This document shows positions 3,420-36,620 of a stretch of 64,000 nucleotides of DNA, piece by piece. The notes beneath the pieces were generated by a model. That model had not been told where the DNA came from. It ran no database searches and was given only the letters and a program-made list of their open reading frames with translations. The position numbers and the translations under genes were made by a program. The stretch's first letter is position 1. Each line of letters begins with the position of its first letter. The DNA is taken from assembly GCA_048939595.1 (NCBI GenBank), contig JBHLPI010000003.1:2366-66365 (forward strand), read 5' to 3'. The DNA comes from Promethearchaeota archaeon. Lineage in GTDB: Archaea > Asgardarchaeota > Hermodarchaeia > Hermodarchaeales > Hermodarchaeaceae.

Positions 3420-5015
3420 TTACAGAATTTTGGTCATGTATGGACCATCATGGCGATAGCCATGACGAAGATAGTATTCTCTTGCTCCAACACCGCTAGT
3501 GCATACAATGCGTTTCCGGCCATATTTTTGTGTAAGTTCGTCTGCCGCAGCAAGGAGTTGAGTACCGACCCCACGGTGTTGCCACGCATCTTCTTGGGTT
3601 TCTCCAAGGCTAAGAGATTGACCATAGACATGTAATTCCCGCAGAAGGGCTGCGTCCTTGGATTTTATTTCAGGGCGATGAGCCATCTGACTTGGAATTC
3701 GTAGCCGTAAATATCCAACTAATGAGTCCCGGTTTGGGTTTTCATAAGCAAGAAATATTTCGGTCCCTTTTGAAGCAGAATATTCATCAACTCGAAGTTT
3801 CAATACCTCGGTATCGATTTCATCTTGTTCTCTTAGATTTTGAGACCGCTGTTTATACCCAACCTCACGATATCTGATAGTGTGTATCATGTAGCCTTTT
3901 TCTTCAGCCCTTTGAAAAACTAGCTGAGTAAGGTTCCCGGCATTGGGACCAGCTACGATCAGCTTTTTGGGAATGTCACGTTGCATTCGTTGAATTCGAA
4001 CCCAATGGGGAATTATTGGCATGATTTCAGCGATAAGATCAATTACTTCTTCGGTCGAATAGGGCGAGTACTCACCTTTACGCCAGATTTCAAATAAATC
4101 ACTACCCCGTAGTACTAGGCACGGGTATATTTTGAGTAAATCAGGTTGAAACGCCTCTTTAGAAAAAATATCTTTGAAGAGTTGTTGATCTCGTTTCTTT
4201 GATGACCCTGGCAAACCAGGCATGATATGATAACATACCTTTAGTCCAGCATCTTTAGCGAGTTGGGTTGCATTTATGACCTCTGAAACTGTGTGACCTC
4301 GGCACACTGTTTGATAGATGTCATCGTAAATGGTTTGTACACCCAATTCAACTCTGGTTGTGCCTAAGTTGAGCATCTTATTGACATGCATTTGTTTACA
4401 GTAGTCTGGCCGAGTTTCTATTGTTATTCCAACAGGACGAATTGATGCTTTTTCTGCTAAGTGTAACGCTTCATCGATATTCTTTGCCTCACAACCGTTC
4501 ATTGCATCCAAACAGCGTTTCATAAATTCCTGTTGATAGTTATCTGAAGCGGATAGAAAGGTTCCGCCCATCACAATTAATTCCACTTTGTCTGTGGTGT
4601 GGCCCATGGCTTGTAGCTGATTTAGTCGACTCGTTACTTGGAGATATGGATCGTATTGATTTTGTCTTGCTCTTAGCGTGGCAGGCTCATCACCTAAATA
4701 GGCTTTAGGAGCAGTTGGGATATTAGTGGGGCAGTAAATACACTTCCCTGGACATTCCATTGGTTCAGTCATTACCGCAACGACAACAACACCTGACAGA
4801 GTTCGGGTTGGTTTTTTTCTAAGTATGTGGCTGACTTGGGCTTTTTCTTTCTCTGTAGCAAAACTGAGAATTTCGACATCAGAAGGAAAACGGGTAAGAT
4901 TGTGTTTTTTACTTAATTTTCGTTTCAGCTTCTGTAAGTCATTCTTACTTTGGACTTTACCTGTTAAGGCGGCTTGAAGAATTTCTTGGGCTACGCGCTC
5001 CAACCTATTTTCCAC
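3420..5015 (-). CDS. elp3: Elp3-type radical SAM/GNAT tRNA modification enzyme
   Basis: Radical SAM cysteine motif CPGKCIYCP, and a C-terminal GNAT segment (QHRGVGTQLL); 531 aa, typical archaeal Elp3 architecture. Confidence 0.9.
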   Translation of the reverse strand: MENRLERVAQEILQAALTGKVQSKNDLQKLKRKLSKKHNLTRFPSDVEILSFATEKEKAQVSHILRKKPTRTLSGVVVVAVMTEPMECPGKCIYCPTNIPTAPKAYLGDEPATLRARQNQYDPYLQVTSRLNQLQAMGHTTDKVELIVMGGTFLSASDNYQQEFMKRCLDAMNGCEAKNIDEALHLAEKASIRPVGITIETRPDYCKQMHVNKMLNLGTTRVELGVQTIYDDIYQTVCRGHTVSEVINATQLAKDAGLKVCYHIMPGLPGSSKKRDQQLFKDIFSKEAFQPDLLKIYPCLVLRGSDLFEIWRKGEYSPYSTEEVIDLIAEIMPIIPHWVRIQRMQRDIPKKLIVAGPNAGNLTQLVFQRAEEKGYMIHTIRYREVGYKQRSQNLREQDEIDTEVLKLRVDEYSASKGTEIFLAYENPNRDSLVGYLRLRIPSQMAHRPEIKSKDAALLRELHVYGQSLSLGETQEDAWQHRGVGTQLLAAADELTQKYGRKRIVCTSGVGAREYYLRHGYRHDGPYMTKIL

Positions 5016-5080
5016 CTGAAGTATATCGGCATATGAAACGAAAAGCGTATGAAGAAGAGCTAGATTTGGTAAATCTAAGC

Positions 5081-29208: not shown

Positions 29209-30381
29209 ATGAAATCGATTAAGGAGCTTTGGGCGCTCGATGAGGCGATTCAGAGGATAGCAGATCAGATTCAGATTATTGAAGAAAAAAGAAATTCTTT
29301 TGCATCGATATTACGAGAGGAACGTCTGCATTTGAATCTGCATGAGAATATTCCCATAGCTAAAAAGTATCTATTTGATGATCGACTCGCACACGTCATA
29401 AAACCGATTGATCTTACTGGACTACGCGTAGGGGGAGTTGATGGAGGACTCCTTAAGAAGACTCTCCGAGGGATTGAACTTGTAATTACTCGTGCTTGCG
29501 CTACAATTTTTGAGTTTACACCATCAAATCGTGTCTCAGTGATTTATTTTCCTGAGAAATCCACTTTACCAACCGTCAAAGCAGAATTGAATCCTATCTC
29601 TTGGCGAGAAGCTGATGTAAATGCTTCTCTTGAAAGACTTAGAGCTGAACTTGAACTAGCGATCCGAGTTCAAGACCATCATCCGGTAGAACTCCTTTTG
29701 TTAGATGGGTCACTAAGGCCACATATCAGTGATCGGCCGTCAAATCAATCGGTGTTTTCAGCAAAGTATGAACGAATTGCAGCACTTTTTGATGAGCTTT
29801 ATGAAAAAACTCGTGAAACTGGAACTTTGCTAGCGGGAGTTGTGAAAGATAGTCGAAGCCAACGATTCATTAAGATACTCGGTGAGATTCTCCCACACTT
29901 AATAAAACAGCATGATGGCCTGAAATCCTTGTTACGGATGGACTACCGATCAATATTACGAACCAGTTATGATACGGATTTATTTTTCCGAATACTTGAG
30001 GTTGGTGAGCGATCACCAATAATTCGATTAAATGAATTAAATCTCGATGACTCGTCGCTGGTAGATGCTGAGCATGCCCCAAATAACAGGAATCTTGTTT
30101 GTATTTATCTGCGAACTGCACAATTTGATTATCCTCTAAGAATTGAGATTTTTACTGGTTCTTTCGACCCCGCGCGGATTGTTGAAAAAGTAAGCGCAAT
30201 GCTCTTCCCCATGTCCTCTAACAATGAGGGATTTGCTCTTCCTACTGTGTTAATTGACGCGGATTCACAGGCACGGCTAATTGAACACGATCTTGACTTT
30301 TTATTTACGCAATTAGCAAATCGCATAGGTTATCCTCAGAGCATACTAAAACTCCGCCGGGAAAGGATGCCGTTTCATTAA
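29209..30381 (+). CDS. nurA: NurA-type nuclease
   Basis: VGGVDGG ... LLLDGSLRP acidic motifs of the NurA domain; sits immediately upstream of herA. Confidence 0.7.
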   Translation: MKSIKELWALDEAIQRIADQIQIIEEKRNSFASILREERLHLNLHENIPIAKKYLFDDRLAHVIKPIDLTGLRVGGVDGGLLKKTLRGIELVITRACATIFEFTPSNRVSVIYFPEKSTLPTVKAELNPISWREADVNASLERLRAELELAIRVQDHHPVELLLLDGSLRPHISDRPSNQSVFSAKYERIAALFDELYEKTRETGTLLAGVVKDSRSQRFIKILGEILPHLIKQHDGLKSLLRMDYRSILRTSYDTDLFFRILEVGERSPIIRLNELNLDDSSLVDAEHAPNNRNLVCIYLRTAQFDYPLRIEIFTGSFDPARIVEKVSAMLFPMSSNNEGFALPTVLIDADSQARLIEHDLDFLFTQLANRIGYPQSILKLRRERMPFH

Positions 30382-30398: not shown

Positions 30399-31931
30399 AT
30401 GACCCAAGAAACCCTTGGAACTGTTGTCTGCACCGAAGATGGCCCATCGACCGAAAAAATATCCTTTGTTATCGGGAAACGCGATGAACTTGATAATGAA
30501 AGCAAGATTCCCGTTCATGTGGGGCAGTATGTTTCTGTTGAAACTGAAGAGGGAAGGGTAATTGCCCATGTCGAACAGGTTTTCAAGACAAATCGCTATT
30601 TCTCACAAGTTGATGCCGTGCACGAATTCACACGTCAAGGAAAGCCCTTTGGCGCAATCTTTCCTATCGACCGCTGGGAATATGTATTAGCACAAGCTAG
30701 ACCCTTGGGGATTTTTGATAAGGGACGGATTCAACGAATTACCTACCCACCGTCACCAGGAGCACTTGTTTCTTCACCAGACTCGAAACTGCTATCAGAG
30801 TTCTTGGGATTTTCAAAGGATGGGCTTCATTTAGGTAAGTTACTTTTCCATAATGTTCCTGCTACATTTAATTTAACGAAATTATTTCAGAAACACGTTG
30901 CGCTCTTGGCTATGAGCGGCGCAGGAAAAAGTTATGCTGCTGCTGTTATGCTTGAAGAGCTCTTTTCCAGAAAAGCCAGCCAAGGACGTCCAGCTGTTTT
31001 AGTTATTGATGTTCATGGAGAATATACTGGATTAGCTGACTCTCCGGAGATGAGAGAAAAAGATGCTAAGGATCGATTAGTAGTTATTCGGAGCCCGTTA
31101 GTTGAACTCGCCACACCGACGATGGGCGCGAAGGCCTTTGCGACTTATTCTCCGGATATGGGTACAATCCAAGTTCGAGAATTAACAAGAGTAATTCGAA
31201 GCTTGCGTACCATTCGAAAAGGACAACCCTATGATTTAGGGGATTTAATCACAGCCCTAGAAAAAGATCCCTCAATTAACACTCGTACAAGAGAAGCACT
31301 CCTTGGATGGTTGGATAACCTGCAAAATCTCAATCTCTTCGGAAAGACTTCAACACCTGAATGGAAGAAGCTAATGAAACCGGGTCATGGAGTTATCCTT
31401 GACTTGAGTGAGACCGTCAGCCTGCAAAAGAAACAGATTATCGTCGATGCTATTCTTCGACATTTATTTGACTTACGACGAGATGAAGAAATTCCGCCTA
31501 CAATTGTATTTCTTGAAGAAAGCCATCAATTCTGCCCGGAAGCGCGACGTGCTCTAGCCTTTTCAAAAGGAATTCTCGAAACTATTGCTCGGGAAGGCCG
31601 GAAATACAATCTCTCGTTGTGTGTAATTTCTCAACGCCCTGTTCGACTCTCAACAACGGTTTTGTCACAATGTGGTTCGAACATTTTTCTTCGTATAACC
31701 AACCCCTATGATCTGGACCATATTAGAGCCACTTCAGAAAAGATTACAAAAGCGACTCTAACATCAATTTCGAGTCTCAGTGTAGGCGAAGCCTTAGTAG
31801 TAGGTCAAGCGACCCGATACCCTGTCTTTATTCAAGTCCGTGAACGGAAAACGAAAGAGACTGCTTTCGGTGAAGATTTCGAAACAGTGGCTAAGAAATT
31901 TGAACAGAAGGGAAAAGGCAAAGTCAAATAA
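30399..31931 (+). CDS. herA: HerA-type hexameric ATPase/helicase
   Basis: HVALLAMSGAGKSY Walker A, VFLEESHQF Walker B region, CVISQRP motif; 510 aa. Confidence 0.85.
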   Translation: MTQETLGTVVCTEDGPSTEKISFVIGKRDELDNESKIPVHVGQYVSVETEEGRVIAHVEQVFKTNRYFSQVDAVHEFTRQGKPFGAIFPIDRWEYVLAQARPLGIFDKGRIQRITYPPSPGALVSSPDSKLLSEFLGFSKDGLHLGKLLFHNVPATFNLTKLFQKHVALLAMSGAGKSYAAAVMLEELFSRKASQGRPAVLVIDVHGEYTGLADSPEMREKDAKDRLVVIRSPLVELATPTMGAKAFATYSPDMGTIQVRELTRVIRSLRTIRKGQPYDLGDLITALEKDPSINTRTREALLGWLDNLQNLNLFGKTSTPEWKKLMKPGHGVILDLSETVSLQKKQIIVDAILRHLFDLRRDEEIPPTIVFLEESHQFCPEARRALAFSKGILETIAREGRKYNLSLCVISQRPVRLSTTVLSQCGSNIFLRITNPYDLDHIRATSEKITKATLTSISSLSVGEALVVGQATRYPVFIQVRERKTKETAFGEDFETVAKKFEQKGKGKVK

Positions 31932-31973
31932 GAGTGGTGGGCACGGCGGGATTCAAACCCGCGACCTCCGGCT

Positions 31974-32011
31974 AACCTAGGCTTCGCAAACGAATGTTCG
32001 GAGCGACTCCA
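31974..32011 (-). other. tRNA intron 2 (canonical position 37/38, 38 nt)
   Basis: The outer helix is the anticodon stem. The central helix is CUUA/UAGG, flanked by 3-nt bulges UA|U and UU|A. The inner helix starts GG/CC. Confidence 0.65.
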
Positions 32012-32019
32012 TATAAGGC

Positions 32020-32050
32020 ATACACACTCCACGCGTCAAGCGTGGTAGTT
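32020..32050 (-). other. tRNA intron 1 (non-canonical position 29/30, 31 nt)
   Basis: A 4-bp central helix (GCGC paired with GUGU, two G-C and two G-U) is flanked by 3-nt bulges CG|A and AU|G. The inner helix is ACU(A)CCACGC / GCGUGGAGU. Confidence 0.6.
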
Positions 32051-32127
32051 CGGCGCTCCATCAGGCTAAGCCACGTGCCCTTAAGGAATTTGAGATAATT
32101 AACTGTGGCTTAAATGTGTTGGCACAC

Positions 32128-35106
32128 CTACTCATCTTGCACACGAAATGCAAAAAGAATTCTGTCATCCTCAAATTTGAGTGTGCCTTGACCTTTTCCT
32201 TTTATGCTTGGCAGCTCATCTTTAATTTCGAACGTTGTTGCGCCTACTTTTGAGGCAATTGAATCACTAGTACTTTTGATTGCTCTTTGTAATTCTGTTG
32301 ACTTAGTCGCTACTAGAAGATGAATGCGTTGTGTAACATGCAACCCCTCTTTTTTCCGAGTTGATTGGATTTGTCGAATTAAATCCCTTGCAAGACGCTC
32401 TGCTTTGATTTCCGGAGTTACAGAAATATCAAGATACACTGTGGCAAATGGAAGTTCCTTCTTCAGTAAAGAAGCGCCAGTAACTTTTTTCTGGATTTCA
32501 ACAGTTTTAACATTAGTTTGGCTTGCAACAACATTATCAAAATGATCTAGCTGAAATTCTTTCTTGGAGGGCACAATAACTAACCGTTGGCATGGCCAAC
32601 GGAGTTTTATTCCTGCTTCTTGTCGGGCATACTGAACTGCTTCAACAATTTCAGAAACCCATTCCATTTCTTGACTTAACTGTTCATTTATTAGCTTCTC
32701 ATCTACAATTGGCCAAGAAAGCATGTGAACACTTAGAGGGGCATCTGGCTCAACAGAACGAATTAGTGATTGATACATTTTTTCTGTCAGAAATGGTAAA
32801 ACCGGAGCTAACACAGCAAGGAGAGCTCGCAGGACCTGGTAGAGTGTATTAAACGCAGCTGTTTTGGTTTCATCTTGCGAGCTAACCCAAGTTCGTGGGC
32901 GTATGAGTTTGATATACCATCGACTCAAATCTTGCACAATGAAATCTTCCATGAGTCGGGGGACATATGGCAGCTCATATTTCTCAAGTCGGGTTGTTAC
33001 TTGCTGAATAAGCAAATTTAGTTGGGAAAGAATCCATCGATCTTCGTTTTGTAAATCCTTCAGATTCAGTGGGCGGGATATTGGGCTGTAATTTGCTGCT
33101 TTCATGAATGTGGTTGCGAAAACGTAGACATTCCATAGAATCGATAAGCTTCGTCGTGTATCTTCGATATCTTTCCAAAGAAAATGCATATCTTCTCCTG
33201 GACCAGTACTTTTGATGCTGTAAAGACGAAGAGTTTCTGCTCCAACTTTTTCAACAATTTCTTCAGGGAGCGCTCCAATACCCTTCGATTTGGACATGGG
33301 TCTCCCTTGTTCGTCGGTTGTAAACCCATGCATATACACGTTTTTGTAAGGTGGTCGGTTTGCTACTAGCATTGTTGAATTGAAGAGCGTGTTGAACCAA
33401 TTACTGATTTGATCTTTGCCTTCGATCACAAATTCTGCAGTCTCCCAGTTATCAAAGTCTTTCGTACCATAGGTTGCCCAACGCGTCGCCCAAGGCGCAA
33501 CACCGCTGTCTAACCATACATCAAGAACATCTCGAACTCTTGACATTGTGCCTTTACATTTCGTACAAGTCCAAGTTAACTCATCGACCCAGGGCCGATG
33601 TAGGTTATCCAGCGTTTTATTGGTCTTTTTCGTTAATTCATCTGCGCTACCAATAACCTCTAAGTTGTCGCATTTATCACAGGCCCAGATAGGTAAGGGT
33701 GCACCCCAATAGCGTTGACGAGAAATACACCAATCCCGTAGATTCTGAACCCAATTGCGAAACCAAGTATGGCCAGCCCAATCAGGAACCCATTGGACAG
33801 CCTCGTTCTCTTTGATGATATCATCGCGAAGATCACTAACACGAAGAAACCACTGGTCCGTCGCAAGGTAGACTAGCGGGCTGTGGCATCGCCAGCAATA
33901 GGCATATTCGTGTTCAATTGTTCCCTGATAAACTAAGAGATTCTTACGTCTTAGATCATCAAGAATAACTTCGTTAGCTTTCTGAATCTTCATACCGGCA
34001 TATTTTCCACCTTCATCGGAGAAAGTGCCAGAGAAAGTTACAGGACAAAAAATCGGTATTCCCTCCTTTTCTCCGACTTCGAAGTCTTGGGGGCCGTGCC
34101 CGGGAGCCATGTGAACAAGACCAGTTCCTTGCTCCAATGTTACATATTCATCGCTTAACACAATAGAATGGACTTTCTCTGATTCTTGATGGAATTCAGC
34201 CTGTCGAGGGATTTCCTCTTCCAACGGATGTTTATAACGGAGTCCCTCAAGCTTTGTACCCTTCAACACTTCGAGAATTTCATAATCCTTGCCCAGTAGT
34301 CCCTGAAGAATGATATTCGCTAGGCCTTTAGCCAGCAGCCATATTTCCTCATCAACTCGAACACGAACATAGTCGAATTCTGGATTTACCATTACTCCCA
34401 TATTGGCAGGAATAGTCCAAGGTGTTGTTGTCCAGATGACAATATACTCATTTTTTCGACCAACTATGGGGAACTTAACCCAAATCGAATAATCTTCTAT
34501 GGTGTGGTATTCATGCTCGCGTTTTGCTAGGGCTGTTTCACAACGAATACAACAGTCAATTGATCGTAGTCCGCGATATAAGAAACCCTGCTCATGAGCT
34601 TTTTTCATTAGAAACCAAGTACCTTCTATGTAGGGATTATCGATTGTACGATAAGGATGATTCCAGTCCATCCAGACACCCAATCGTTTGAATTGCGCGG
34701 TCATCCGGTTTAGATTCGAAAGGGCAAAATCCTGACACCGCTGAATGAATTTATCGACACCGATGGTTGTTTCAATATCTAACTTTGATTTCACACCGAG
34801 TTCTTTCTCAACATGAACTTCAATTGGTAAACCGTGCATGTCAAATCCGGGTGTATCAACGACCCGAAACCCTTTCATGCGTTTAAATCGTAGAACAAGG
34901 TCTTTCATAATCTTGTTCCAAGCTGTTCCGAGATGAATTGCACCTGTTGTATATGGTGGACCATCTAGAAACTGGAAAACGGCTTGATCACGAAGCTGAT
35001 CTGTGAGTTTAGCATATACCTGATTCTTCTCCCAGAATTGAAGTATTTCCTCTTCAAGAGAGAGCAGATCAAATTTCTTTGGAAGTTCTGTAACTGGCAT
35101 TGTCAA
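32128..35106 (-). CDS. ileS: isoleucyl-tRNA synthetase
   Basis: HIGH-class motif PYTTGAIHLGTAWNKIMKD, DWCISRQRYWGAPLPIW, PMSKSKG (KMSKS); 992 aa. Confidence 0.95.
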   Translation of the reverse strand: MTMPVTELPKKFDLLSLEEEILQFWEKNQVYAKLTDQLRDQAVFQFLDGPPYTTGAIHLGTAWNKIMKDLVLRFKRMKGFRVVDTPGFDMHGLPIEVHVEKELGVKSKLDIETTIGVDKFIQRCQDFALSNLNRMTAQFKRLGVWMDWNHPYRTIDNPYIEGTWFLMKKAHEQGFLYRGLRSIDCCIRCETALAKREHEYHTIEDYSIWVKFPIVGRKNEYIVIWTTTPWTIPANMGVMVNPEFDYVRVRVDEEIWLLAKGLANIILQGLLGKDYEILEVLKGTKLEGLRYKHPLEEEIPRQAEFHQESEKVHSIVLSDEYVTLEQGTGLVHMAPGHGPQDFEVGEKEGIPIFCPVTFSGTFSDEGGKYAGMKIQKANEVILDDLRRKNLLVYQGTIEHEYAYCWRCHSPLVYLATDQWFLRVSDLRDDIIKENEAVQWVPDWAGHTWFRNWVQNLRDWCISRQRYWGAPLPIWACDKCDNLEVIGSADELTKKTNKTLDNLHRPWVDELTWTCTKCKGTMSRVRDVLDVWLDSGVAPWATRWATYGTKDFDNWETAEFVIEGKDQISNWFNTLFNSTMLVANRPPYKNVYMHGFTTDEQGRPMSKSKGIGALPEEIVEKVGAETLRLYSIKSTGPGEDMHFLWKDIEDTRRSLSILWNVYVFATTFMKAANYSPISRPLNLKDLQNEDRWILSQLNLLIQQVTTRLEKYELPYVPRLMEDFIVQDLSRWYIKLIRPRTWVSSQDETKTAAFNTLYQVLRALLAVLAPVLPFLTEKMYQSLIRSVEPDAPLSVHMLSWPIVDEKLINEQLSQEMEWVSEIVEAVQYARQEAGIKLRWPCQRLVIVPSKKEFQLDHFDNVVASQTNVKTVEIQKKVTGASLLKKELPFATVYLDISVTPEIKAERLARDLIRQIQSTRKKEGLHVTQRIHLLVATKSTELQRAIKSTSDSIASKVGATTFEIKDELPSIKGKGQGTLKFEDDRILFAFRVQDE

Positions 35107-35271: not shown

Positions 35272-35787
35272 ATGAGTATGCAACAACGCCAGTATGTTCT
35301 CAAAGTCTGTGTCGTCGGTGATGGTGCTGTAGGAAAAACCAGCCTTATCATCCGCTATACCGAAGGTCACTTTCGAGAATCTTACATCATGACAGTTGGA
35401 ACATCTTTCGCAGTGAAGGAGTTAACTTTTGGTGACACTTTGGTCCGTTTACAACTTTGGGATCTGGCGGGGCAACCACATTTTAGTTCGGTTCGTCCAG
35501 TTTTTTATCGTGGGGCTGCAGGTATTATTTTGGTATATGATGTAACGCGTCGTTCGACATTTGATGCGATTCCGGCATGGTATACTGAGGTTTCACAGGT
35601 TACCGGGAATGTGCCAACTGTGCTGCTGGCGAACAAAGTGGATTTGGTAGACCAAAGCCAAACAACAACAGAGGAAGGTATGGCATACGCTCAACAACTT
35701 GGGTGGGGGTACTTTGAGACTAGTGCGAAGGAAGGTAAAGGTGTTACCGATGCCTTTCGGCAAATCGCCTGGTCATGTATTAGCTAG
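35272..35787 (+). CDS. Rab/Ras-like small GTPase
   Basis: G1 GDGAVGKTS, switch I YIMTVG, G3 WDLAGQ, G4 NKVD, G5 ETSAKEG; 171 aa. Confidence 0.85.
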   Translation: MSMQQRQYVLKVCVVGDGAVGKTSLIIRYTEGHFRESYIMTVGTSFAVKELTFGDTLVRLQLWDLAGQPHFSSVRPVFYRGAAGIILVYDVTRRSTFDAIPAWYTEVSQVTGNVPTVLLANKVDLVDQSQTTTEEGMAYAQQLGWGYFETSAKEGKGVTDAFRQIAWSCIS

Positions 35788-36620
35788 CCTTCGTCTGATT
35801 CCGAATTCATTATGAAATCAGTTAATTTGTGTGAGCTAGTCTGATGCAGATAGATTGCGCATTGTTGTGGTTCAATTTTGCGATATTCCAGACCAAGTTG
35901 TTCTAGGAGTGCAAAAGTGCCTTTAGTAAGACTTGGAGCGACAAGTATTCCTCGGATGCCTGCATTTTCTTCTCCCTGAAAGCTTTTGAGATAACCATGA
36001 AGTTGGTGCACTGCTTCGCTATCTGCTCGTCGGCGCTTTACCTCGATTATCACTAAATGTTCATCACTATCGCGAGCAAATATGTCAATGAACCCAGGCG
36101 CGACTTGTCGTTCCCGAACAATGGTTCGGAGACCAGGCTCAATGAGTTCAGGGTGGGCACTAAGAACCTTTTGCATTTCGTCTTCAGTTAGATACATGGT
36201 GAATTCACCAGGATCATCTAGCAGGCTAGCGCTAAGCATTGTGAGAGAGGAAAATTCAATACGAACAGTTTCACGGGGTTTAGCACGATTAGCATAAAGA
36301 ATGAGTGTATCTTCCTCGCAGGTGACTTTCATTGTTGCGCCAGGTGGCTGCCAATTCAATGGTTCTACCCCACTTTCCTTATGAACTAGTATCGTACCAT
36401 CTCGTTTTAAGAGAACGAGACGTTCTCCTTCAGTGAGAATTGAACGGGCTCGTCCCTGATACTCAACAAAACAGACGCCAATAATTTGTATGAAACGTTT
36501 TTGCGAAATAGCATCTTGGATTAGGATGCTGGCTTCTTCAAGAGATGGAGATTTGAGTAGCCATATCTTGTCATCAATAGAGAACTGGGGTTTAGACAAA
36601 TTCTTTCCCATCGAAGTCAT
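35784..36620 (-). CDS. nucS: endonuclease NucS/EndoMS
   Basis: N-terminal CFVEYQGRARS...KRDGTILVH...PLNWQP, and a C-terminal RecB-like GFIDIFARD...LVIIEVKRRRA...QLHGY. Confidence 0.8.
   Translation of the reverse strand: MTSMGKNLSKPQFSIDDKIWLLKSPSLEEASILIQDAISQKRFIQIIGVCFVEYQGRARSILTEGERLVLLKRDGTILVHKESGVEPLNWQPPGATMKVTCEEDTLILYANRAKPRETVRIEFSSLTMLSASLLDDPGEFTMYLTEDEMQKVLSAHPELIEPGLRTIVRERQVAPGFIDIFARDSDEHLVIIEVKRRRADSEAVHQLHGYLKSFQGEENAGIRGILVAPSLTKGTFALLEQLGLEYRKIEPQQCAIYLHQTSSHKLTDFIMNSESDEG

Follow-up and report, generated by a model that had tools for sequence, protein, structure and literature searches.

A putative AUA-reading tRNA-Ile(UAU) gene with two introns directly downstream of ileS in an Asgard archaeon

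To our knowledge, AUA is the sole sense codon for which domain-specific tricks are in use, namely lysidine, agmatidine or a tRNA with a UAU or IAU anticodon. The standard archaeal system consists of TiaS and a CAU-containing tRNA-Ile2 that is modified to agmatidine, and archaeal tRNAs with a UAU anticodon have so far been regarded as isolated oddities of reduced genomes. Here we describe a gene on the minus strand of a 64-kb stretch of contig JBHLPI010000003.1 from a Promethearchaeota archaeon (the whole stretch is called the window below), which is very likely to be a functional AUA-reading tRNA-Ile gene with an encoded UAU anticodon, belonging to an Asgard archaeon of the Hermodarchaeum lineage. 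It shares with the eukaryotic nuclear tRNA-Ile(UAU) the encoded UAU, which eukaryotes use in place of a modified CAU, and the intron at position 37/38 that the eukaryotic gene always contains, whereas the eukaryotic tRNA is cleaved by the Sen complex, has one intron and shows no linkage to a synthetase gene. In yeast, the intron of tRNA-Ile(UAU) is required for the formation of pseudouridines at positions 34 and 36.

Reports of archaeal tRNA-Ile(UAU) exist for Korarchaeum and Nanoarchaeum (PMC6000648) and for ARMAN (PMC3239211), in agreement with the statement of an earlier note on this DNA that such tRNAs are rare in archaea. The pre-tRNA-Ile(UAU) of ARMAN-2 (Fujishima et al. 2011, PMC3239211) likewise has an encoded UAU and a 37/38 intron in a strict hBHBh' motif, and was correctly cleaved in vitro by its cognate endonuclease; unlike the window gene, it contains one intron of 25 nucleotides rather than two, its host is a DPANN archaeon with an epsilon2 endonuclease, no ileS link was reported, and its lack of TiaS and CAU-Ile2 has been demonstrated. 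The genes of Korarchaeum cryptofilum and Nanoarchaeum equitans (PMC6000648) are rare archaeal UAU tRNAs of other lineages, of which the Korarchaeum gene also bears an intron, but only one, and resembles its own GAU tRNA-Ile; the authors of that study proposed species-specific gains, whereas the gene described here is common to whole classes. A further counterpart is the 'Ile TAT' gene of Atabeyarchaeia-2 (Valentin-Alvarado et al. 2024, PMC11291895), also an Asgard multi-intron tRNA-Ile(UAU), which differs in its length of 212 nucleotides, in having more and different inserts and in the lack of an encoded CCA, and which was listed without comment.

In bacteria, the tRNA-Ile2(UAU) of Mycoplasma mobile (Taniguchi et al. 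2013, PMC3575796) also has a UAU anticodon, which there replaces the modified-C system, but is intronless, with an unmodified U34 and a block of AUG reading at the level of the ribosome. The isoleucyl-tRNA synthetase (IleRS) of M. mobile had to adapt (Arg865) to accept UAU (PMC3575796), which by analogy would make co-evolution of the linked ileS and tRNA-Ile(UAU) a reasonable idea. In three complete Asgard genomes, 92-95% of the tRNA genes contain introns and over half contain several (PMC11291895), so that multi-intron genes are the rule and a double interruption is ordinary. Multi-intron tRNAs of Thermoproteales and Asgard archaea (PMC11291895; Sugahara et al. 2008, as cited there) have similarly short, motif-bounded introns at non-canonical positions and are cut by an (alpha-beta)2 endonuclease with an L1 insert (PMC5829648); the window gene shows no difference in kind from this class and is one more example, with a short middle exon. 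Neither a tRNA-Ile(UAU) in archaea nor a multi-intron tRNA in Asgard archaea is new in itself. What appear to be undescribed are the fixation of a UAU tRNA across a whole free-living Asgard class and its presence in three further Asgard lineages, as well as its conserved pairing with ileS, the misreading of a homologue as a pseudogene and the conservation of the second intron.

The locus comprises the following features, given in the order of transcription where they belong to one gene.

32128..35100, minus strand: ileS, isoleucyl-tRNA synthetase, 990 amino acids from ATG (TIGR00392), directly upstream of the tRNA
32108..32122, minus strand: spacer motif CCAACACAUUUAAGC, conserved in related loci while the remaining spacer is variable
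31935..32080, minus strand: whole pre-tRNA-Ile(UAU) gene (RF00005 match, ARAGORN on the spliced form, 15 conserved loci)
32080-32051, minus strand: exon 1, 30 nucleotides; acceptor 5' strand, D arm and positions 26-29
32053..32056, minus strand: exon strand of the intron-1 central helix, G24 C25 G26 C27, pairing with GUGU at 32025-32022
32050-32020, minus strand: intron 1, 31 nucleotides, between tRNA positions 29 and 30
32019-32012, minus strand: exon 2, 8 nucleotides, GCCUUAUA, positions 30-37
32015-32013, minus strand: anticodon U34 A35 U36, inside exon 2
32011-31974, minus strand: intron 2, 38 nucleotides, at the canonical position 37/38
31973-31935, minus strand: exon 3, 39 nucleotides including CCA, positions 38-76
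31937-31935, minus strand: encoded CCA at the 3' end of the pre-tRNA gene

The earlier note had described a 146-nucleotide tRNA at 31935-32080 with two inserts of 31 and 38 nucleotides; its coordinates and sequences proved correct, the gene lying on the minus strand with the 5' start GGGCACG UG GCUU and the 3' end CGUGCCC ACCA, and its 8-nucleotide middle exon stands. The joined exons also match, letter for letter, the 77-nucleotide product it had given. Covariance analysis of the window with RF00005 gave a match over the full model (1-71) with 39.6 bits, compared to a gathering score of 29 (E = 7e-5, whole window), in which an insert of 80 nucleotides replaces 11 model positions of the anticodon arm. 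This was the sole RNA-family match to Rfam in the 64 kb, even with E values up to 1, and no other tRNA was observed in the window at permissive thresholds. The check by a tRNA finder, as the earlier note had proposed, was successful in one part only: ARAGORN reported zero tRNAs in the 64-kb window, the pre-tRNA-Ile(UAU) gene included, while the spliced 77-nucleotide sequence was folded into a clean cloverleaf and identified as tRNA-Ile(tat). The spliced tRNA contains a 7-bp acceptor, a 4-bp D, a 5-bp anticodon and a 5-bp T stem, in which every pair forms, consistent with the perfect arms noted before (all 21 stem pairs, as scored in the enumeration below). It carries U8, U33 and a purine at position 37, and its anticodon loop, CUUAUAA, has 7 nucleotides with U33, A37 and A38. 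Exon 3 provides the 3' strand of the anticodon stem, the variable loop, the T arm (loop UUUGAAU, with U56), the 3' strand of the acceptor stem, A73 and CCA.

The structure recognised by the archaeal splicing endonuclease is a helix of 4 bp flanked by two 3-nucleotide bulges, each of which is cleaved behind its second base (Marck and Grosjean 2003, cited in PMC11291895). Both introns are bounded by this bulge-helix-bulge motif. In the intron-1 motif, the central helix is GCGC x GUGU with the bulges C28 G29/A and A U/G30 (slash, splice junction), and the interior consists of three inner-helix pairs plus a 6-bp hairpin. In the intron-2 motif, C32 U33 U34 A35 (32017-32014) pairs with UAGG (31979-31976), with the bulges U36 A37/U and U U/A38, and the inner helix contains two G-C pairs and a variable third pair (U-G, C-G or U-A); the outer helix is the anticodon stem, itself split by intron 1. 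Folding together with sequence places intron 2 in the canonical anticodon-intron fold, while the D stem lends its 3' strand to the intron-1 motif, and the minimum free energy fold of the entire 146-nucleotide precursor shows the latter motif unprompted. Because the intron-1 central helix competes with the D stem, the precursor must refold alternatively for the cut at 29/30. To define the junctions, all introns with a central helix paired at 4/4 positions were enumerated in combinations of up to four, and the products were scored as cloverleaves. The two-intron UAU solution is the unique top of this exhaustive search, with all 21 stem pairs, U8, U33 and a purine at 37, whereas the runners-up have lower scores and are built on non-conserved sequence. 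The junctions proposed in the earlier note are therefore borne out by the motifs around both introns, by their unique rank in the search, by the conservation of the motifs in 14 sequences and by compensation in the intron-1 inner helix. Its UAU anticodon is equally robust, since single-intron readings yield junk that is inconsistent between lineages (Gly-acc versus Ser-gct).

IleS-led collection of relatives provided 10 genome loci from Asgard metagenome-assembled genomes (MAGs), including Candidatus Hermodarchaeum yapensis, with 77-82% IleS identity, and a further 8 metagenome loci, of which 2 are from a more distant lineage (64% IleS identity). Independent assemblies provide 15 loci with the complete tRNA, corresponding to 14 distinct sequences, and in all 15 the tRNA begins 45-60 nucleotides after ileS. 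All of these share a common architecture, that is, an exon of 29-30, an intron of 30-32, an exon of 8, an intron of 37-38 and an exon of 39 nucleotides. Exon 1 is identical in 13/14 distinct sequences, the change in the remaining lineage, L020, being compensatory (acceptor A5-U68 to C5-G68), and exon 2 is invariant in all loci. Both splicing motifs are present in 14/14 distinct sequences, in which the stem pairs of the spliced tRNA are also kept; 98% of the structure cells in the alignment are paired, compared to 32-48% after the 3' partners were slid by 1-3 columns. In the intron-1 inner helix, 6/9 pairs show compensatory two-sided changes, and the flanks of intron 1, AAC and GUGUGUAU, are conserved. 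Mean pairwise identities within the clade are as follows.

Exons: 0.98-1.00
Intron-1 3'-end strand and bulge: 0.94
Intron 2: 0.91
Intron-1 hairpin: 0.52
ileS third codon positions (neutral yardstick): 0.46

Exon identities of this order, against the neutral level, indicate that the gene is under strong selection and is not a pseudogene. The intron parts that form the predicted motifs appear constrained, and the intron-1 hairpin seems to drift freely so long as it remains paired. A further coordinated change concerns the G19-C56 tertiary pair, which is replaced by A19 (32061, minus strand) and U56 (31955, minus strand) in every Hermod-type locus (D loop AGCCUGAUG, T loop UUUGAAU), whereas homologues in Odin, Hel, Atabeya and DPANN-like loci retain GG and C56; as A19 and U56 have changed jointly, the tertiary pair is kept. 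U56 would also abolish the usual archaeal Cm56 site. NCBI labels within this one IleS clade (L001-L011; P0003-P0022, P0098 and P0117; 76-82% identity) range over Thor-, Odin-, Hod- and Hermod- names and 'Promethearchaeota', while two proteins labelled 'Hermodarchaeota' belong to another IleS type (1045 amino acids, 45% identity), so that the taxon names of MAGs are untrustworthy at face value.

The upstream gene is identified as ileS by the TIGR00392 equivalog (902.7 bits, cutoff 621.4) and the Pfam domains tRNA-synt_1, Anticodon_1 and DUF5915, and a database entry 100% identical to the window IleS also has 990 amino acids. Its stop codon, TAG, lies at 32130-32128 and the spacer to the tRNA is 47 nucleotides, confirming the placement of the tRNA directly 3' of ileS on the same strand, as noted earlier; the pairing recurs in other classes. 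Within the spacer, the TTTAA of CCAACACAUUUAAGC (32114-32110) ends 30 nucleotides before the 5' end of the tRNA, a position that fits an archaeal TATA box, and the conserved motif is probably the tRNA's own transcription factor B recognition element (BRE)/TATA promoter. ATA accounts for 14.8 per 1000 codons and for 18.6% of the Ile codons in the long open reading frames of the window. Opposite the 11 ATA codons of ileS, relatives carry 51 Ile, 21 Val and 1 ATG of 88 codons. Since ATA aligns with Ile and Val rather than Met, AUA stands for isoleucine, and a reader is required. The spliced tRNA contains A73, C4-G69, U12-A23, A37 and A38, which we take to be identity elements of E. coli tRNA-Ile.

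Other lineages, located via the names on IleS homologues, provided the following loci (IleS identities are to the window protein).

Odinarchaeum yellowstonii, complete genome CP091871.1 (L024), IleS 51%: CCGGC-CUUAUA tRNA starting 55 nucleotides after ileS
Second Odin-like contig (L033), IleS 51%: the same tRNA design after ileS
Atabeyarchaeum CP147780.1 (L022 6028-6239, record 35441-35652), IleS 54%: 212-nucleotide tRNA gene, 36 nucleotides after ileS
Helarchaeote (L026), IleS 51%: CUGGC-CUUAUA..GCCAG about 70 nucleotides after ileS, three inserts
L032 and L034, IleS 47-48%: tRNA-Ile(UAU) with a single 37/38 intron, 126 and 178 nucleotides after ileS
Two Asgard contigs with the 1045-amino-acid IleS type (L027, L028), IleS 45-46%: next gene 2 nucleotides after ileS, no tRNA

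The Odinarchaeum tRNA (L024 6014-6160) has inserts in the D loop, at 37/38 and probably a third at about 43/44; a two-intron reading scores equally well, and the third junction is ambiguous over a CCGG repeat. In L033 the 37/38 central helix differs from that of LCB_4 (UAGG versus UGAG) with pairing intact. Both Odin genes (L024 6014-6160, L033 4518-4671) have the T loop UCCGAAU, that is, C55 where U (pseudouridine) is nearly universal. The Atabeyarchaeum gene carries GGCCUUAUA, and its introns are not fully resolved by the strict-motif search. Its position after ileS in CP147780.1 makes the arrangement orthologous to that of the window. It corresponds to the Atabeyarchaeia-2 entry 'Ile TAT, 2 introns, possible pseudo', flagged in this way by tRNAscan-SE (PMC11291895, Supplementary Data 4), and is probably a functional multi-intron tRNA-Ile(UAU), as judged from its sequence. 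Standard tRNA finders miss such genes or flag them as pseudogenes, with the result that Asgard genomes seem to have no AUA decoder. The IleS proteins of L032 and L034 are 62-68% identical to Undinarchaeales and Naiadarchaeales enzymes, which makes these loci Undinarchaeota-like (DPANN-like). Exon 2, GCCUUAUA, recurs in the Odin, Hel, Atabeya and DPANN-like loci. The 37/38 intron, which pairs with the anticodon here and in each related lineage examined, is the one feature common to all lineages with the tRNA, the other inserts varying in number and place. As each of these lineages has different flanking genes, ileS and tRNA(UAU) have stayed together in changing surroundings. In the Atabeyarchaeum locus, a gene for an IS605 OrfB/Cas12f-like TnpB lies directly upstream of ileS (L022 1253-2584, minus strand), and in the DPANN-like L032 a second tRNA (UUC, Glu; 55.9 bits) follows tRNA-Ile(UAU) at 4972-5046.

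We also searched for TiaS, using Archaeoglobus fulgidus TiaS (identical to PDB 4RVZ/3AMT) as the query. A first homologue search gave Archaeoglobi only, and a representative search with cluster look-up added a single Asgard protein, a Kariarchaeaceae TiaS whose neighbours are Heimdall, Thor and Bathyarchaeia proteins. No Hermod, Odin, Hel or Atabeya name is among the 120 nearest relatives of the Asgard (Heimdall) TiaS, which is a weak negative. Two genomes labelled Thorarchaeota carry tiaS between tsr3 and the ribosomal protein genes S11-S4-S13 (L029 3001-4335, L031 1001-2332), which makes this a convenient landmark for tiaS or its loss in other Asgard genomes; the window does not include the region. 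No paper linking TiaS or agmatidine with Asgard archaea was found in the literature library searched. In ARMAN lineages, UAU and TiaS/CAU are mutually exclusive (PMC3239211), and the published tRNA tables (PMC11291895, Supplementary Data 4) fit this pattern, with UAU but not Ile2-CAT in Atabeyarchaeia-2 and the reverse in Freyarchaeia.

Three other readings would deny the locus its role as an AUA-reading tRNA-Ile. The earlier note had named a pseudogene score, together with a standard TiaS plus CAU system, among the results that would overturn it, and the failure of ARAGORN in the window, the 'possible pseudo' label on the Atabeyarchaeia homologue and the departure of U56 and A19 from the universal C56 and G19 might indeed be taken as signs of a decaying tRNA disrupted by insertions. 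As far as sequence analysis goes, however, conservation excludes it, and we regard decay as highly improbable, given exons that are 98-100% identical on average compared to 46% at ileS third codon positions, inserts with exact, covarying splicing motifs at their borders, a joint A19/U56 change that keeps the tertiary pair, and a gene that stays beside ileS across classes. Different junctions, or a single large intron, would lead to a different anticodon, as in the single-intron mode of ARAGORN, which reads the window as Gly(acc). The Gly(acc) reading, with its poor anticodon stem and over-long variable region, turns into Ser(gct), again with a poor stem, in the related L020 lineage, and was rejected; in addition, the exhaustive search ranks UAU first with all stem pairs formed, and GCCUUAUA, from which no locus of the clade departs, is found again in the Odin, Hel, Atabeya and DPANN-like loci, leaving very little room for another anticodon. 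If the tRNA read AUA while bearing a different amino acid, such as the Met of mitochondria, this would imply a code change, for which the support is a formal possibility only; with ATT, ATC or ATA at 51, Val at 21 and ATG at 1 of the 88 codons opposite the ileS ATA codons, and with the discriminator A73, A37-A38 and the ileS linkage, this is extremely improbable.

Two further readings accept the tRNA and question its setting. The UAU tRNA may be real but redundant, a second and perhaps minor AUA reader in a genome that also has TiaS and tRNA-Ile2(CAU), as could be argued from the presence of TiaS in Asgard Heimdallarchaeia and Thorarchaeota and of an Ile2-CAT gene in Freyarchaeia (PMC11291895, Supplementary Data 4). 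We consider this possible, though not probable, because the two systems are exclusive wherever both were checked, in ARMAN (PMC3239211) and between Atabeyarchaeia-2 and Freyarchaeia, because no Hermod, Odin, Hel or Atabeya proteins are among the named entries of the 120 nearest TiaS relatives (again weakly), and because complete exon conservation argues for an essential role. The adjacency to ileS, in turn, may be merely inherited gene order without functional meaning: the Hermod-clade neighbourhood is wholly syntenic (Ras-like GTPase, NucS, ileS, tRNA, HerA, NurA) and the tRNA apparently has its own promoter. This is a real possibility, although we would lean against it, as the flanks are entirely different in the Odin, Atabeya, Hel and DPANN-like loci and yet the ileS-tRNA(UAU) pair is retained, and as Asgard genomes with the 1045-amino-acid IleS type have no tRNA at that place. 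At the other extreme, the pair might constitute a co-inherited AUA system of Hermod, Odin, Hel, Atabeya and Undinarchaeota-like DPANN archaea that replaces TiaS/agmatidine, with the 37/38 intron required for intron-dependent modification of UAU as in eukaryotes; taken as a whole, this proposal is tentative and rather unlikely. If it were true, eukaryotic AUA reading would trace back to an archaeal ileS-tRNA module. Heimdallarchaeia, usually placed nearest to eukaryotes, carry TiaS, so the UAU system of the other classes is not obviously the direct eukaryotic ancestor. Heimdallarchaeia and Thorarchaeota keep TiaS, and with this division between UAU and TiaS among the closest archaeal relatives of eukaryotes, comparative genomics and tRNA sequencing can test where the intron-containing tRNA-Ile(UAU) of eukaryotes came from.

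Returning to the assignment as a functional AUA-reading tRNA-Ile, we propose that transcription starts from the tRNA's own TATA-like promoter, CCAACACAUUUAAGC, in the 47-nucleotide spacer, and that a splicing endonuclease then cuts the 146-nucleotide precursor after the second base of each 3-nucleotide bulge of the two observed motifs. The enzyme may be the (alpha-beta)2 endonuclease with an L1 insert, as Asgard archaea are reported to have this type with broad specificity (PMC5829648). Ligation of the 30-, 8- and 39-nucleotide exons would provide the standard 77-nucleotide cloverleaf with the loop CUUAUAA, which would be charged by the neighbouring IleRS and read AUA as the Ile that the ATA alignments indicate. 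U34 is probably modified to prevent AUG reading.

Several observations weigh against this assignment. The outer helix of intron 1 consists of only two G-C pairs and a bulged A, although a relaxed outer-helix motif is reportedly accepted by the Asgard type of endonuclease (PMC5829648). The central helix of intron 1 is invariant in 14/14 sequences, so covariation is unable to confirm it, and the intron-2 central helix of L020 has one A-G mismatch. No spliced joint is present in the two matching metatranscriptome contigs (Logan; contigs only, presence only): X5 (181 nucleotides, depth 7.8) and X24 (151 nucleotides), both wetland relatives, retain both introns, for which DNA carry-over is a possible cause. 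Charging with Ile by IleRS is a prediction, with indirect backing from the identity-type bases and the conserved ileS adjacency. TiaS occurs elsewhere in Asgard archaea, in Kariarchaeaceae, in several Heimdallarchaeia (one of them Heimdallarchaeum aukensis, with a complete genome) and in some Thorarchaeota, and the related DNA in which it was searched for and not found came to 346 kb.

In intron 2 (31974-32011, minus strand; also in L001-L020 and L025), mean identity is 91%, with 79% against the distant L020 lineage. Conservation on this scale lies far above the neutral level and well exceeds what the predicted splicing requires, so that the splicing motif does not account for it. Its core, GUCGCUCCGAACAUUCGUUUGCGAAGCC, is retained even where the exons differ. 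Inner structure was considered as the cause and rejected, as the apical stem is broken by an uncompensated G13 to A change (L011, L020) and by a deletion (L017); structure alone does not account for the conservation. A permissive Rfam search of the locus and the window gave nothing that accounts for it, no C/D box was seen in intron 2 by eye (no RUGAUGA or CUGA), and the intron is too short for an H/ACA guide. Pairing of CGCUCC in intron 2 with GGAGCG in exon 1 (D arm) is compatible with the data, but a 6-nucleotide complement is expected by chance. The conservation would be compatible with intron-dependent pseudouridylation at positions 34 and 36, by analogy with yeast. Intron 1 of L006 (13057-13086) shares the word CGACCACGCT(TT) with the start of the 37/38 intron in Odin (L024) and Atabeya (L022). 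The word extends over 10-12 nucleotides (12 with Atabeya), and shuffles give at least 10 nucleotides in 3.7% of trials; with this frequency, and in a region that evolves fast in the Hermod clade, it was dismissed as evidence of intron transposition and is a curiosity only.

On the 3' side of the tRNA, a convergent gene for a HerA-like helicase (30399-31931, plus strand) ends 4 nucleotides from the tRNA 3' end, so that the two transcription units must terminate inside each other, and a NurA gene at 29209-30381 lies upstream of it. Just upstream of ileS, the genes at 35272-35787 (plus strand) and 35784-36620 (minus strand) encode a small GTPase of the Ras family (Pfam Ras, 172.9 bits) and the endonuclease NucS, and the order of GTPase, NucS and ileS is also found in L025.

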